Below, piece by piece: positions 3,439 through 28,956 of a DNA stretch of 64,000 nucleotides (its first letter is position 1; each line of letters opens with the position of its first letter). The translations under genes were made by a program, and so were the position numbers. The DNA is taken from NCBI GenBank assembly GCA_963768855.1, contig CAVYJM010000006.1, forward strand, positions 800,001-864,000, given 5' to 3'. The notes under the pieces are model-generated. The model was given only the letters and a program-made list of their open reading frames with translations, made no database searches and was not told the DNA's origin. The stretch comes from an uncultured Thermoplasmata archaeon. GTDB lineage: Archaea; Thermoplasmatota; Thermoplasmata; RBG-16-68-12.

Positions 3439-4584
3439 CTACTTGGGCCGCTCGATGATTGTCGCGAGGCCCATGCCGAACCCGATGCAGAGCACGGCCA
3501 GGCCGTAGTGGAGATCCTGCCGCTCCATCTCGTGGAGCATTGTCGTGATCAGGCGAGCACCGCTCATCCCGAGCGGGTGTCCGAGGGCGATTGCACCGCC
3601 GTTTACGTTGAGCTTCGCGGCGTCGAAGCCGATCTCGTTCCGGGTGGCGAGGGGCACGCTCGCGAATGCCTCGTTCACCTCCCAGATATCGATGTCGTCT
3701 ACCGTGAGTTCCGCCTTCGCGAGGGCCTTTCGCGCGGCCGGAATCGGCGCGTCGAGCATGATCGTCGGGCTCGTACCCGCGACACCTGTGGCCACGAACC
3801 GCGCGCGGGGCTCGAGCTTGAGCTCCTTCGCCTTCTCCGGGTTCGTGACCAGGATGGCGCACGCGCCGTCGTTAATGCCGCTGGAGTTGGCGGCCGTGAT
3901 GCGACCGTCCTCCTTGAATGCGGGAGGGAGGGACTTGATCTTCTCGAGGGTCGTGTTCCGCCGAGGGTGTTCGTCCGTGTCGAACATTCGCTTGTTCCCG
4001 CTCTCGTCGACCACGGGTACGGGCACGATCTCACGCTTGAAGCGGCCCTCGTCGATCGCGCGGATAGCCTTCATATGCGAGTGGTAGGAGAACTCGTCCA
4101 TCTGGTCGCGCGTGATGTGGTACTTGTCCGCGACGAGGTCAGCGGAGATACCCTGCATGACGATGTCGTACTTGTCGAGGAGCTGCTGACTGAGTTCGCC
4201 CATGTCGGAGCCCAAGGGGACGCGGGACATGGATTCCACACCGCCGCCGATGACGATGTCGTTCTGTCCAGTCATGACCTCCATGCAGGCGTCGTTGAAG
4301 GCCTGCAGTCCGGAGGCGCACATCCGGTTCACGCTGTTGCCCGGGACCGTGTCCGGGAAGCCGGCGATGAGCGGCGCTAGGCGCCCGATGTTTCCACCCT
4401 GGTCGGCGACCTGGGTCACGCAACCCAGGGTGACGTCCTCGATGAGCTTGGGCTCGATCCCCGCGCGGTCTACGACTTCCCGCAGGACATAAGCGGCGAG
4501 GTCGTCGGGCCGCCAGTCTTTCAGGGATCCCCCTCGCTTGCCGATCGCTGTACGGACCGCGCCCACAATCACTGCGTCAGGCAT
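3439..4584 (-). CDS. Acetyl-CoA C-acyltransferase (classical thiolase)
   Basis: VGAVRTAIGK start; intact NRMCASG, NEAFA, GHPLG and CIGFG catalytic motifs. Confidence 0.9.
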   Translation of the reverse strand: MPDAVIVGAVRTAIGKRGGSLKDWRPDDLAAYVLREVVDRAGIEPKLIEDVTLGCVTQVADQGGNIGRLAPLIAGFPDTVPGNSVNRMCASGLQAFNDACMEVMTGQNDIVIGGGVESMSRVPLGSDMGELSQQLLDKYDIVMQGISADLVADKYHITRDQMDEFSYHSHMKAIRAIDEGRFKREIVPVPVVDESGNKRMFDTDEHPRRNTTLEKIKSLPPAFKEDGRITAANSSGINDGACAILVTNPEKAKELKLEPRARFVATGVAGTSPTIMLDAPIPAARKALAKAELTVDDIDIWEVNEAFASVPLATRNEIGFDAAKLNVNGGAIALGHPLGMSGARLITTMLHEMERQDLHYGLAVLCIGFGMGLATIIERPK

Positions 4585-4682
4585 CGACTTCCCTGGGTAT
4601 CTCGATGGGCCGGGCGAGATAAGAAGGTTCGCCAGACCCCCGCGGGGAAGGTTCAAGTCTCGCGGTCGGATTCAGCGGCGAG

Positions 4683-5867
4683 ATGCCCGCGCCCCTCGAA
4701 GGTCTCCTCATCCTGGACTTCACCCGCCTCCTTCCCGGCCCGTTCGCGACGCAGCTCCTGTGCAACCTCGGAGCTGACGTGATCAAGATCGAGGACCCCA
4801 ACCTCGGCGACTACATGCGGACGGTTCCACCCTCCATCCAGGGTATCTCCTACGCCTACCTCATGGTGAACCGCGGGAAGAGATCGCTCTCCATCGACCT
4901 CAAGATGAAGGAGGGCCGGGAGATCCTCTACAAGCTCGTTCCGAAGGCGGACATCGTGATGGAGCAGTTCCGGGCCGGTGTCATGAAGAAGCTGGGCGCT
5001 GATTACGCGACGCTCTCGAAGCTGAACCGGAAGCTCATCTACTGTGCCTTCTCGGGTTACGGGCAGACCGGGCCCGCGAAGGACGTACCCGGGCACGACA
5101 TCACCTTCGACGCCCATGCAGGCATTCTCGGGGTGAGCGGCGACCACCGTGGCCGCCCTGCCATTCCGGGCGTGCCGATGGCCGACCTGGCCAGCGGCTT
5201 CAATGCCGCTATGTCGGTCCTGGTGGCCCTACGGACCCGCGACAAGACCGGAAAGGGCGAGTTCATCGACGTCTCTATCTTCGACACAGCGGTCAGCCTC
5301 ATGGTCCTGAACCTGGCGCGGTTCCTCGCCACCGGAGAGGAACCCGTCGCGGGAGAGACCCTGCTCACAGGCTCGTTCCCCTTCTACAATCTCTATGAGG
5401 CCTCGGATGGCGGTTGGCTCGCGGTGGCCGTCGTTGAACCCAAGTTCTGGCAGAAGATGTGCGAGCTCCTCGGAGCGCCCGAACTGAAAGAGGCGCAATT
5501 CGCCGATGAGCGGGAGAAGACGCGGGTCCTGACGACCCTGCGATCTCGGTTCCGCTCGAAGACGAGAGCAGAGTGGGAGGCCCTGTTCACGGAGGCGAAC
5601 CTGCCCATCGTCGGCGTCAAGACCGTCGCTGAACTCGTGAGGGATCCGCAGGTGAAAGCGCGCGAGCTGCTGCCAGTCGTCGACGTGCCAGGTCTCTGGA
5701 AGATGCCGGTGATCGGGCATCCGGCGAAGCACACGGTTTCCTCGACGCGGAACCCGGCCCGCGCGCCCGCGAAGGGCGAGGACACGGAGGAGATCCTCCG
5801 CTCCCTGGGGTACACGCCGAAGCAGATTGCCTCTCTCGCAAAGAAGGGCGTCATCGCGTTGGGATAG
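4683..5867 (+). CDS. Family III CoA-transferase (CaiB/BaiF)
   Basis: LDFTRLLPGP, ADVIKIEDP, NRGKRSL, GHDITF, and catalytic Asp in PMADLASG. Confidence 0.9.
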   Translation: MPAPLEGLLILDFTRLLPGPFATQLLCNLGADVIKIEDPNLGDYMRTVPPSIQGISYAYLMVNRGKRSLSIDLKMKEGREILYKLVPKADIVMEQFRAGVMKKLGADYATLSKLNRKLIYCAFSGYGQTGPAKDVPGHDITFDAHAGILGVSGDHRGRPAIPGVPMADLASGFNAAMSVLVALRTRDKTGKGEFIDVSIFDTAVSLMVLNLARFLATGEEPVAGETLLTGSFPFYNLYEASDGGWLAVAVVEPKFWQKMCELLGAPELKEAQFADEREKTRVLTTLRSRFRSKTRAEWEALFTEANLPIVGVKTVAELVRDPQVKARELLPVVDVPGLWKMPVIGHPAKHTVSSTRNPARAPAKGEDTEEILRSLGYTPKQIASLAKKGVIALG

Positions 5868-23969: not shown

Positions 23970-24380
23970 TCAGCTGGCCGCCGGGCGGAACTTGTAGCCG
24001 TAGTGGATCACGCCGGCGTCGCCTTCCTGGCCGAGCTTGCGGAAGGTGGCTTGGACCCGCATCCCGATTTTGACGTCCTCGGGCTTGACGTCGATGAGCT
24101 GGCTCGTGAGCCGGACGCCTTCCTCCATCTCGATGATCGCCATCACGTAGGGCTTCTGCATGTCAAACTGGGACGGCGCGTCGTAGATCGTGGTGTACGT
24201 GACGACGGTCCCCTTCCCGCCGAGCTTGTAGGTCTGCATCTTCCCCACGGACTTGCGGCCGCAGTCCGGGCATACGGACCTCGGGGGGAAGTCGACCTTG
24301 CCGCAGTTCCCGCACTTCGTGCCGACCAGGTTGTAGCGGCTCTGGATCTCCCGCCAGAACCGGGGGATGGCCGTGCCCAT
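23970..24380 (-). CDS. DUF35 Zn-ribbon/OB-fold scaffold protein
   Basis: CGNCG..FPPRSVCPDC, GTVVTYT, YGYKF; last gene of the HMGS-thiolase cluster. Confidence 0.9.
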   Translation of the reverse strand: MGTAIPRFWREIQSRYNLVGTKCGNCGKVDFPPRSVCPDCGRKSVGKMQTYKLGGKGTVVTYTTIYDAPSQFDMQKPYVMAIIEMEEGVRLTSQLIDVKPEDVKIGMRVQATFRKLGQEGDAGVIHYGYKFRPAAS

Positions 24381-24381
24381 C

Positions 24382-25551
24382 TCAGTCCCCCCGCTCGAAG
24401 AGATGCACGACGGCCGTGGCGCCGGTGCCTCCGAGGGTGTGCGTGAGACCGTGCATCGCGCCGACGACCTGCCTCTTGCCGGCCTCCCCGCGGAGCTGCT
24501 TCACGATCTCGACCGCCTGGGCGACGCCCGTGGCGCCGACCGGCTGGCCTCGGGCCTTCAGCCCGCCCGAGGTGTTCACGGAGATCTGGCCGTTCAGCGC
24601 GGTCACCCCGTCGACCGTGGCGGGGCCGCCCTTGCCCTTCTCCACGAACCGCAGGTCCTCGATCGCGAGGATCTCGGTGATCGTGAAATTGTCGTGGACC
24701 TCGGCGACCTGGATGTCCTTGGGCTCGAGCTTCGCCTGCTGGAAGGCACGCTTCCCCGCGACGACCGTTGCGTCCATCGTGAGGAGGTCCCTGCGGTCAT
24801 GGAGGGCGAGGAAGTCGCTCGCCTGTCCGGAGCCGCGCAGGAGAATCGGGGTGTCCGTGAACTTCCGTGCCCGGTCCGCGGAGCACAGGACGACGGCCGC
24901 GGCCCCGTCGGACAGGGGCGCGCAATCGAACAGTCCGAGGGGGTCCGCGACGAGCGGGGCGTTCAGGACCGTCTCGAGGGTGATCTCCTTCTGGAACTGG
25001 GCCTCGGGGTTGAGGGAGCCGTTCTTGTGGTTCTTCACCGCGACGGCGGCGAGCTGCTCGCGCTTCGTGCCGTACTCGTACATGTGGCGTCGTGCCATCA
25101 TCGCATAGAGCCCGGCGAAGGTCGCCCCGAAGACGCTCTCCCACTCCTGGTCTGCGGTGCTCGAGAGGATCTCCGCGGCCTGAACATCCCCGACGTCGGT
25201 CATCTTCTCCGCGCCGCCGACCACGACGATGTCGTACATCCCGGAGGCGATCGCGAGGCGTGCCTGCATCAGGGCGATTGCGCCGCAGGCGCCGCCCCCT
25301 TCGACCCGCACGGTCGGGAGGTGGTGCTTCGCCAGGCCCGAGTAGTCCGCGACGAGAGCCGACACATGCTCCTGATCGATGAACTTCCCCGCGGACATGT
25401 TGCCGATGTAGATTGCGTCGATGTCCTCGGACGCGATCTTCGCGTCTTGGATGGCCTTGAGCCCCGCCTCGATTCCGAGGTCGCGGAAGGATCGGTCCCA
25501 GAGCTCCCCGAACTCGGTCTCCCCCACGCCGATGACGGCCACATCGCGCAC
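24382..25551 (-). CDS. Archaeal acetoacetyl-CoA thiolase homologue with altered catalytic motifs
   Basis: [44 protein letters not shown] 25551 has a GGGAGG SD; 25557 is an alternative start. Confidence 0.85.
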
Positions 25552-25553
25552 GT

Positions 25554-26606
25554 TCACTCCTCCCGGAGCAGGATCTTGCCGCGGTACTTCGCGTAGGTCG
25601 CGTAGTCCACGAACGCATGGTCCTCGATCATCTGTTTCACCGTCGGAGTCGCGTTCCGGCGGATCTTCGTGATCTGGTCGGTCACCGTGAGGTCGAAGCC
25701 GTCCGAGCCCGCGCCGGAGCCGTAGCCCACGGCGAAGATCCGGTCGCCCGGGTCCGCCTCGTCCAGGATGGCGCTCAGGCCGACGAGGATCGCTCCGCTG
25801 TACGTGTTGCCGATGTCCCGGACGCAGAGGCCCGCGTCGATCTGGGCGTCCTTGAACCCGAGCTGCTTCGCGGCCCGCACGGGGAACTTCCCGTTGGGCT
25901 GGTGGAAGACGGCGTAGTCGTAGTCCTGGGGCTGGCTCCCCACCTGCTTGAACAGGAGCTGGGCGCAGTTGATCACGTGCTTGAAGTACGCGGGCTCTCC
26001 CGTGAACCGTCCGCCGTGGCTCGGATACCGCTGTCCCTCGCGACGCCAGAAGTCCGGCGTGTCCGTGGTGTAGGAGACCGTGTGGCTGATGTCCGCGATC
26101 GTGTGGTCGGTCCCGATGAGCAGGGCCGCCCCGCCGGCCGAGGCGCTGTACTCGAGCGCGTCCCCCGGGGCTCCCTGGCTCGTGTCCGTGCCGACCGCCA
26201 TCCCGTACTTCATCATCTTGGAGAGCGTGAGGCCCATCGTGGTCTGGACCGCCGCGGTGCCCGCCTTGCAGGCGAACTCGAAGTCCGCCGCGGTCAGGAT
26301 GGGGGTCGAGCCGATGGCCTCCGCGACGATCGTCGCGGTCGGCTTCACGGCATACGGGTGGGACTCGCTCCCGACGTAGATCGCGCCGATGTCCGTGGGG
26401 TTGATGTCCACCTTGGCCATGCACGCCCGCGCGGCCTCGACGCTGATGGTGATCACGTCCTCGTCCGGGCCCGGGACGCTCTTCGCCTTGATGTTCAGGG
26501 ACCGGCCCATGGCCTCGCCGTCGTTGCCCCAGACCGCTCCGATGACCTTCGGCGTGATCCGGTATCTCGGAATGTAGGCTCCGTAGCTCACGATTCCTGC
26601 TTTCAT
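25554..26606 (-). CDS. mvaS: Archaeal HMG-CoA synthase
   Basis: [50 protein letters not shown]; catalytic Glu, Cys and His present. Confidence 0.92.
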
Positions 26607-27280
26607 CCCAATCGCTCCAGTCGTTCGACCAAGTCCTTCGGTTCCAGTTCCGTGCGCGCCAGGAGGATGTTGTCCATCTCCGCGAGCTTGACGGCCAGCT
26701 CGTCGATGTTCTCCGGTTGGATGTACACCACCATGGCCGGCTTGAGCGGGTGCGCCTTCACGGCGATCATGGGCGAGCGCCCGTACTTCACGCCGGTGAA
26801 GAGCAGGGCCCGCTCCGACGTGGTGCCGTAGATCTTGAGATAGTCGTTCGCGTCGAACGTCGTGATGGCCTTGATGGAATCGATGACCGTGTACCCGTTC
26901 ACGAGGCGCCGCGTGTTCATGCCGCTCGTCAGCAGCTTGCCCTCGATCTTGCGAAGGAAGTCCGCGGCCCGCATCCCGACGGGCCAGTCCCGCATGGACG
27001 GGATGACGTCGTTGTACTCTTCGAACCGCCTCGACAGCCGCCGTCCGGACCGCTGGTCGACCTCCAGGAAGGCGTCCACGAGCCGGTGGACCGTCTTGAT
27101 CCCGGGCGAGGTCCGTCGGCCCGCCTCGTAGTCGCTGATCACGCTCGGCGAGACGTGCATGTGGCGGGCGAGTTCGGTCTGGGAGATGTGGAGCTCCTCC
27201 CGCCACTTCCGCATCGTGCGGCCGGGGGACTCGGAGAGGACGATCTCACCCGCGATCTTCTCTCGGAGCGGGAGCTCCAT
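26603..27280 (-). CDS. XRE-type HTH protein typically encoded upstream of archaeal HMGS
   Basis: [47 protein letters not shown]; ATGA overlap with HMGS. Confidence 0.85.
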
Positions 27281-27382: not shown

Positions 27383-28801
27383 TCACGTCGTGCTGGCCTG
27401 GTATCCTTCCGCGATCCGACGTCGAACATCCGGGTTGAGCAGGTTCCCGAGGACCACCTTTCGGCCCGTGCGGTTCGATCCCATCATGCGCACGAAGTCC
27501 TTCAGGCCACCCTTGCTCTTCCATCCCTGGATGTGCGCGGCGTAGGCCGCTTCGGAGAGCTTCCCTAGGAGTTCCTGCGGCAATCCGTTCTCGTGGTACT
27601 CCCAGATCCGATGGTTCCGCTTCCAGTCGTCCGGAGCCACGAGGCCCTCGTCTACGAGGTCGTCCCAGATCGGAGTCCCGACAAGGCAATCGAGGATGTT
27701 CACTTGCACCGCGTGAGGCCGGAGGTCGCGGATGAAATCGATCGTCCGCTGGATGTCCTCGCGCTTCTCCACCGGGGCACCGATGATGAAGGACGTCACG
27801 ACGATCATCCCGGCGCGCTTCGCGTCCGCGACCGCTCGCTGGGCTTGGATCGCACGGATCCCCTTCTTGTAGTAATTCAGGACATGGGGCGTGGGGCTCT
27901 CCACTCCGAAGTACATCACGTCGAATCCGGCGCGCTTCATCGTCCGAAGGAGCTCGTAGGGCGCGTTGTCGACCCGCCCCTCGCAGTACAAGCGCATGCG
28001 GATCCTGCGCTCGCGGATCTGCTCGCAGATCTCCGTGACCCGGCTCTTCTTTAGGGTGAAGTTGTCGTCCACGAAGACCACGTTCTCGTAGCCTTGCTCG
28101 TGCAGGTCCTCGAGCTCGTCCACGACGTTCGTGGCGGTGCGAGCCCGCCACCGGCGCTGGGAGAAGGCAGCGCAGGAGCAGTAGGTGCAGGCGAACGGGC
28201 AGCCGCGGGACGACACGATCGTCGTGAACTTGCCGAACGTGAGCCGGATCTTCTCATGGAAGTAGCCGTACTCGAGGTCCCCGAGCATGCGCCGATCCGG
28301 CGCGGGGAGCGAGTCCAGGTCCTTGATGACGGCCAGCGGCTGGCTCACCAGGTTTCCGTCGCGCAGATAGCTGATGCCCTCGACGTCGGACGGCTCCTTG
28401 TCCTGCTCAAGGCGATCGAGGAGGTCCGGGAACGCGCGCTCGGCCTCCCCCTTGATCACGTATTCGACGAACGGATAGTCCCGCAGGATCTTCTCCGCGG
28501 CGAAGGTCGAGTGGTACCCGCCCATGACGAGCGTGGTCTCGGGCCTCGCCTCGTGGATCTTGCGGAGGGCTTCGATGGCTTCGAGGAAGGTGTGGGTCGA
28601 GCAGTTGATCCCGAAGACGTCCGGCCGCTCGCGTGCGACGTGCGCGGCGAGCTCGTCCCCGCTGAGGTTGCGGCAGAACGCGTCGAGGACCTGCACGTCC
28701 TCGCGTCGGCGGGCGCGGAGGCTCGACGCGATGTAGAGGAGGCCCAGGGGCGGCCACAGTTCGGTCGTCTTCCCCGGAGGGGTGGACAGGAGCACTTTCA
28801 T
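27383..28801 (-). CDS. Cobalamin-binding-domain radical SAM enzyme
   Basis: PPLGLLYIAS, MGGYHST, SSRGCPFACTYC (CxxxCxxC), FVDDNF, FGVES. Confidence 0.88.
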   Translation of the reverse strand: MKVLLSTPPGKTTELWPPLGLLYIASSLRARRREDVQVLDAFCRNLSGDELAAHVARERPDVFGINCSTHTFLEAIEALRKIHEARPETTLVMGGYHSTFAAEKILRDYPFVEYVIKGEAERAFPDLLDRLEQDKEPSDVEGISYLRDGNLVSQPLAVIKDLDSLPAPDRRMLGDLEYGYFHEKIRLTFGKFTTIVSSRGCPFACTYCSCAAFSQRRWRARTATNVVDELEDLHEQGYENVVFVDDNFTLKKSRVTEICEQIRERRIRMRLYCEGRVDNAPYELLRTMKRAGFDVMYFGVESPTPHVLNYYKKGIRAIQAQRAVADAKRAGMIVVTSFIIGAPVEKREDIQRTIDFIRDLRPHAVQVNILDCLVGTPIWDDLVDEGLVAPDDWKRNHRIWEYHENGLPQELLGKLSEAAYAAHIQGWKSKGGLKDFVRMMGSNRTGRKVVLGNLLNPDVRRRIAEGYQASTT

Positions 28802-28956
28802 GATCGGGGTCCGAGGTCGCCGCCGCGGCATCTCTCGCGTCCTTTGACGGAGGCGGGGCAGCCGCTGGTTGGGGCCTCTAGGCGCACAGCCGGAACCGCG
28901 GGTAAGAACACTCCGTACATTCTATGGGTGTAGTCCTGGGCAGGCGCCGCCCGTCC

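Follow-up and report, generated by a model that had tools for sequence, protein, structure and literature searches.

A thiolase homologue with altered catalytic motifs as a probable non-catalytic partner of HMG-CoA synthase in Thermoplasmatota

The thiolase gene lying between the HMG-CoA synthase (HMGS) and DUF35 genes of an uncultured Thermoplasmata archaeon encodes a protein without the nucleophilic Cys, and we consider it probable that this protein serves the HMGS/DUF35 complex as a pseudo-enzyme, acetoacetyl-CoA being supplied by classical thiolases. The locus was examined in a stretch of 64,000 nucleotides, referred to as the window, and the features discussed are collected in Table 1. 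An earlier note on this DNA had offered two alternatives, a pseudo-thiolase scaffold with acetoacetyl-CoA coming from outside, or re-wired chemistry: the former is the one we favour, while the latter is disfavoured by the comparisons presented below. On a wider scale, we see roughly equal chances for and against the proposal that, in most Thermoplasmatota, the channeling complex was converted to an HMGS with an obligatory dead thiolase subunit after the arrival of a bacterial-type thiolase.

Table 1. Coordinates of the genes and motifs discussed (window positions unless a contig is given)
Feature	Position	Strand	Remarks
HTH_3 (XRE-type) DNA-binding protein	26603..27280	(-)	225 aa; Pfam PF01381 + PF13560; first gene of the operon
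HMG-CoA synthase (HMGS)	25554..26606	(-)	350 aa; E81/C113/H235/N267 tetrad intact
Cys-less archaeal (SCP2-type) thiolase homologue	24382..25551	(-)	389 aa; GTG start; proposed non-catalytic subunit
Motif 1, EGGGACG	25282..25302	(-)	residues 84-90; 6ESQ has EAACASG
Motif 2, HDNF	24685..24696	(-)	residues 286-289; 6ESQ has HDCF
Motif 3, GQP	24541..24549	(-)	residues 335-337; 6ESQ has GHA
DUF35 protein, zinc ribbon + OB fold	23970..24380	(-)	136 aa; Pfam PF12172 + PF01796
Classical (bacterial-type) thiolase	3439..4656	(-)	CxS, NEAF, GHP, CxG intact; possible acetoacetyl-CoA source
Family III CoA-transferase	4683-5867		adjoins the classical thiolase 3439-4656
Second trio (live thiolase, HMGS-like protein, DUF35)	L005:7192-9815 (G000:C11:269191-271814)		three adjacent genes

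The thiolase homologue carries the Thiolase_N (PF00108, 105.7 bits) and Thiolase_C_1 (PF22691, 151.4 bits) domains, which together span its full length. It matched the subfamily model NF004720 with 560 bits (cut-off 420); with NF053570, the equivalog derived from the methanogen thiolase, it reached 579.7 bits and so fell slightly short of the cut-off of 600. Among solved structures it is most similar to the Methanothermococcus thermolithotrophicus acetoacetyl-CoA thiolase (6ESQ_A, E 8e-115), with which the motifs align gap-free. In this alignment Gly87 occupies the position of the nucleophile (Cys85 of 6ESQ_A) and Cys89 that of the Ser in CxS. The acid/base Cys286 of 6ESQ_A is replaced by Asn288, with His286 and Asp287 retained beside it, and the His of GHx by Gln336; of the catalytic motif residues, nothing but this His-Asp pair of HDxF is left. 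Translation and alignment with 6ESQ_A thus bore out the three altered motifs reported in the earlier note, and its description of intact HMGS Glu, Cys and His residues and of a DUF35 neighbour was equally correct. The nucleophilic Cys is the hallmark of the thiolase superfamily, and in the archaeal complex a mutation confined to the HDxF His is enough to abolish the formation of HMG-CoA (PMC12960953). Judged from its sequence, the protein is an archaeal thiolase in fold and descent, but lacks the defining features of a working one. Several homologues are named acetyl-CoA acetyltransferase in the JGI annotation, and such an assignment of this gene in metabolic reconstructions is probably wrong.

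The operon is tightly packed on the minus strand in the order HTH_3, HMGS, thiolase homologue and DUF35. The stop codon of the HTH_3 gene and the start codon of the HMGS gene overlap as ATGA, indicating translational coupling, and spacers of only 2 nt and 1 nt separate the HMGS stop from the thiolase GTG and the thiolase stop from the DUF35 start, respectively. The HTH_3 protein may be the regulator of the operon. Just upstream of the latter lies a gene for a B12-binding radical SAM protein of 482 aa (27383-28831, minus strand), for which a part in lipid modification is conceivable. HMGS aligned with 6ESQ_I at E 1.8e-136 and scored above both NCBIfam equivalog cut-offs (NF003274, 545.7 bits; TIGR00748, 535 bits). 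No second catalytic HMGS was found in the genome from which the window is taken, leaving the operon copy as the sole one, and HMG-CoA reductase is likewise present in a single copy. In the DUF35 protein, all four Cys of the zinc ribbon (C23, C26, C37 and C40) are invariant.

A thiolase/HMGS/DUF35 complex is known from M. thermolithotrophicus (PDB 6ESQ/6ET9; Vogeli et al., PNAS 2018, as presented in PMC12960953), and a CoA-binding chamber is common to its two enzymes (PMC12960953). The window locus has the same gene trio, a thiolase of the same length, and conserves the HMGS tetrad and the DUF35 zinc ribbon, whereas three residues of the methanogen thiolase are replaced, namely both Cys (the nucleophile and that of HDCF) and the His of GHx. 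By synteny and best match, we assign the thiolase homologue as orthologous to the thiolase of the archaeal complex. A model of the complex derived from HMGS, DUF35 and thiolase alignments obtained a score of 0.91, to be read against the 0.76 also obtained by a control in which HMGS was replaced.

We then considered whether the substitutions are real. The nucleophilic Cys was absent in all 120 database homologues of 75-95% identity, whose named members are Thermoplasmata or Thermoplasmatota metagenome bins. Motif 1 reads EGGGACG in 115 of them and EAAGASG in 3, and the third-motif position is occupied by Q, Y, N, H or M. The same was observed at the 25 syntenic loci from seven families of the window's order: the Cys is missing and the HMGS-thiolase-DUF35 order kept in 25/25, every thiolase having Gly in place of the Cys together with HDN[FY] and RG[QYN]P. 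Across the order the thiolase homologue is 72-97% identical. Contigs from four wetland metagenome runs, belonging to four studies, also cover the gene and display the same Cys-less state; 34 of the 37 listed variable places are third codon positions, and the differences within motif 1 are all synonymous, again at third codon positions. Assembly error, which the earlier note had named as capable of overturning its observation, is ruled out by these 120 homologues, 25 loci and four metagenomes.

Selection on the three genes was compared within the order. Median pairwise dN/dS amounted to 0.115 for the thiolase homologue, 0.169 for HMGS and 0.206 for DUF35, values which, with dS near 0.9, are rough in absolute terms and informative in their ranking. 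The thiolase homologue is under strong purifying selection, with a lower dN/dS than the catalytic HMGS, and from this ranking it follows that the protein has a function, albeit one other than thiolase activity. That the gene is a relic in decay, or a functionless artefact of assembly or binning, is most improbable. The loss of three catalytic residues and the 7.7% contamination estimated for the genome bin could be cited for it, but the frame is open over the full length and, beside the dN/dS value, identity across the order and recovery of the same sequence in metagenomes of four studies speak against decay. It is also quite improbable, if somewhat less so, that the protein remains an active acetoacetyl-CoA thiolase using Cys89 of EGGGACG as nucleophile. 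This residue, two positions past the lost Cys, does occur in the window protein and in most of the order; yet Ser takes its place in families f3 and f5, and Gly in an f7 genome (G029), all of the same order, and the equivalent position is Ser in 45 of the 58 Cys-less thiolases of the phylum. Moreover, neither the acid/base Cys nor the His of GHx remains. The shifted Cys, mentioned in the earlier note as a possible rescue, is thus not conserved even inside the order and is rejected as a general mechanism.

The distribution of the Cys-less state was surveyed with HMGS as an anchor in 150 other Thermoplasmatota genomes. Matches were obtained in 114, and 60 loci from different families were fetched. 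The thiolase and DUF35 genes follow HMGS in 60/60 loci, and the HMGS-adjacent thiolase is devoid of the Cys in 45 of the 60 genomes; with the window's order counted in, the Cys-less state is found in 32 of 44 families. The Cys-less state, which the earlier note took to mean an unusual entry into lipid synthesis, is thus not unusual among the sampled families of this phylum. Cys-less lineages have G, D, E, S or T where the Cys would stand. When representatives at 50% identity were placed in a tree, the clade of the window protein was nested within a larger Cys-less clade, whose named members are Thermoplasmatota bins, and the canonical sequences form the sister group.

Comparison of alignment columns between the two sets showed relaxed constraint at the lost catalytic positions. 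These three positions fall at the 71st-79th percentile of column entropy among Cys-less sequences; in the Cys-keeping set, the nucleophile Cys and the HDxF His are invariant and the GHx His is present in 14/15 sequences. The HDCF Cys varies in both sets and is kept in 10/15 Cys-keeping sequences. On the other hand, 56/58 Cys-less sequences retain the HDxF His, and Asp287 is nearly invariant too. Fifty-seven positions are conserved in Cys-less and Cys-keeping groups alike. Ten columns lost constraint, nine of which are residue positions, including the nucleophile and the GHx His, while the column-by-column comparison with the canonical set identified no position conserved in the Cys-less group only. 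This lack of a newly fixed residue argues against a new chemistry common to the Cys-less lineages. One group of families shows a recurrent Asp/Ser/His constellation (EAADASG, HDS[YF] and RGHP), which could be functional rather than inherited. Intermediate states were observed as well. Four loci of families f10, f24 and f29 (L041, L042, L056 and L061) keep the nucleophilic Cys and have lost the HDCF Cys (HDAF or HDAY), and in one locus of f22 (L054) the GHx His is changed to Asn with both Cys kept.

The genome of the window contains three classical thiolases with intact Cys, NEAF, GHP and CxG: the window copy, a copy at C6:413.7 kb and a copy at C10:94513-95673. The last adjoins a 3-hydroxyacyl-CoA dehydrogenase gene (L100:5232-6083), giving a thiolase/Hbd pair. 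It is this C10 copy that the classical thiolase recurring in different families resembles (52-61% identity), identity to the window copy being only about 40%. The possible supplier named in the earlier note, the window copy, is intact, but it is one of three, and the orthologue recurrent in the phylum is that on C10.

At least one classical thiolase was present in all 38 genomes of the genus. In the phylum sample, such an enzyme was detected in 44/45 Cys-less genomes (PF00108, E<=1e-50), the exception being 80% complete. Among Cys-keeping genomes, 9/15 have none, and the families in which no classical thiolase was found (f10, f15, f24, f29 and f37) all keep the Cys. Each of five 99%-complete f8 genomes possesses exactly one SCP2-type thiolase, which is Cys-less, and one classical thiolase. 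The association looks one-directional, the classical thiolase being necessary, yet insufficient, for Cys loss. It is to be taken as descriptive only, for the HMGS tree holds 6 state changes and a single supported independent pair (6 when all branches are included).

A second archaeal-type thiolase, for which the earlier note had advised to search the genome, is indeed present on contig C11, in a second trio with a dead HMGS-like partner. This thiolase has the motifs ENACASG, HDCF and KGHP. The HMGS-like protein is full length, carries T/T/Q/D at the E-C-H-N positions and is closest to MucA/PhlA proteins; it nonetheless passes NF003274 (275 bits, cut-off 244) and is therefore liable to mis-annotation as HMG-CoA synthase. 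The trio matches the arrangement of PfACAT/HMGS-DUF35 of Pseudomonas fluorescens, a complex that cleaves acetoacetyl-CoA and yields no HMG-CoA (PMC12960953). It is followed by the two subunits (A/B) of a CoA-transferase and by a class III aminotransferase, and, given these CoA-transferase neighbours, looks catabolic. Orthologues of 73-92% identity were found in 6 other genomes of the genus, bringing the carriers to 7/38, so that the trio is an accessory module and not a general supplier. Contamination is an unlikely origin, considering its GC content (67.5% versus 67.2% for the window cluster) and the orthologues in six genomes of the genus. Directly upstream of the second trio, a 441-aa ORF (L005:5684-7009) contains a Cas12f1-like TNB domain of TnpB type, which hints at an accessory module near a mobile element. 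The window trio and its mirror image, present in one genome, form a natural pair in which the division of functions within a two-enzyme complex can be studied.

Other systems in which a thiolase fold is partnered by DUF35 were compared with the window trio. PfACAT/HMGS-DUF35, PhlABC and MucABC are likewise three-part assemblies where one of two thiolase-fold subunits is dead yet retained. In these, however, it is the HMGS-like subunit that is dead and the thiolase that keeps its Cys, the opposite of the window. The Friedel-Crafts acyltransferases PhlC and MucB keep Cys and GHx, have lost HDxF and work with an HMGS-like partner without the E-C-H-N tetrad (PMC12960953); each of these features is reversed in the window thiolase and HMGS. 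The steroid side-chain aldolases Ltp2 and Sal also combine an SCP2-thiolase fold without nucleophilic Cys with a bound DUF35 domain, and their catalytic Tyr is located in Y-D-x-F/Y (YDHF or YDCY; PMC12329534). In the window protein this Tyr corresponds to His286 (HDNF), and the partners are HMGS and a stand-alone DUF35 protein instead of a MaoC hydratase. The closest solved Cys-less thiolase-fold chain is PDB 4YZO, a 'putative acyl-CoA acyltransferase' (E 2.4e-75) with VDNTSGSGG, which differs in keeping the GHP His and is less similar to the window protein than the active 6ESQ thiolase.

Decarboxylating homologues of condensing enzymes, of the KS-Q or chain-length-factor type, have Gln at the active-site Cys position. 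This type was rejected: the position is Gly87 in the window, and among related lineages, which have G, D, E, S or T, Gln does not occur there.

These comparisons bear on the proposal that the protein catalyses another reaction on a CoA thioester, as an aldolase, acyltransferase, decarboxylase or hydratase, through His286/Asp287 and other residues. We regard it as unlikely, even if it is the least improbable of the alternatives considered. The near-invariance of His286/Asp287 and the conservation of the pocket loops would fit such an activity, and thiolase folds partnered by DUF35 have repeatedly gained new chemistry (Ltp2, Sal and PhlC/MucB; PMC12329534; PMC12960953). Against it, the residue at the Cys position is variable, no position has gained constraint, and the HMGS partner, the only catalytic one of the genome, is fully intact. 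Nor do the precedents invoked in the earlier note, Ltp2 and PhlABC, apply: neither a YDxF Tyr nor a catalytic Cys is present, HMGS is not PhlA-like, and no residue is newly conserved. Less likely again are mixed assemblies, in which the dead subunit would associate with a live thiolase, either that of C11 or a classical one, and keep channeling, the two half-dead trios making up one system. The occurrence in the same genome of a mirror-image trio with a live thiolase and a dead HMGS-like protein invites this idea. But that trio is restricted to 7/38 genomes of the genus and the f8 genomes are without a second SCP2-type thiolase, so this is not a general solution, and its CoA-transferase neighbourhood points to catabolism.

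We thus return to a pseudo-thiolase subunit as the preferred explanation. The homologue would no longer be capable of forming the acetyl-Cys intermediate or of Claisen condensation. Together with DUF35, it would hold the catalytically intact HMGS as a structural partner and, by analogy with the solved methanogen complex, may complete the CoA-binding chamber common to both enzymes. Acetoacetyl-CoA would be made by classical bacterial-type thiolases, of which this genome has three in addition to the live archaeal-type thiolase of the second trio, and would diffuse to HMGS, as it does in bacteria and eukaryotes. Observed directly are the residue losses and their conservation, the purifying selection, the relaxed catalytic columns and the co-occurrence with classical thiolases; that the complex still forms, that its dead subunit aids CoA binding and which thiolase feeds HMGS are inferences. 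The near-invariant His286/Asp287 and the conserved pocket loops could reflect ligand binding, or residual chemistry.

The thiolase/DUF35/HMGS assembly is described as the archaeal route past the unfavourable first step of isoprenoid-lipid synthesis, nearly universal in archaea, and is treated as a working complex across the domain (e.g. bioRxiv 2024.07.05.601840). One of its two enzymes appears dead in a whole order and in about three quarters of the sampled Thermoplasmatota families, and full-text literature searches found no paper in which an archaeal thiolase partnering HMGS is reported to be Cys-less. Conservation of the dead subunit suggests that archaeal HMGS depends structurally on its partner. 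If the proposed conversion of the complex is true, archaeal HMGS needs the thiolase body for something other than catalysis, for example to complete the CoA-binding site, and archaea can make their lipids without channeling acetoacetyl-CoA. The present analysis contributes the column-wise comparison of loss and gain, the order of the three genes by dN/dS, the association with classical thiolases, which runs in one direction and has the limits given above, the orthologue to which the recurrent classical thiolase corresponds, and a full-length mirror-image trio within one genome.

Finally, two tandem thiolase-fold paralogues with 34-35% identity to the window protein were observed about 133 kb beyond the window (L003/L004, G000:C6:996838-999083). 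Both are without the nucleophilic Cys, reading GGGTGV and SGDGLHG instead.
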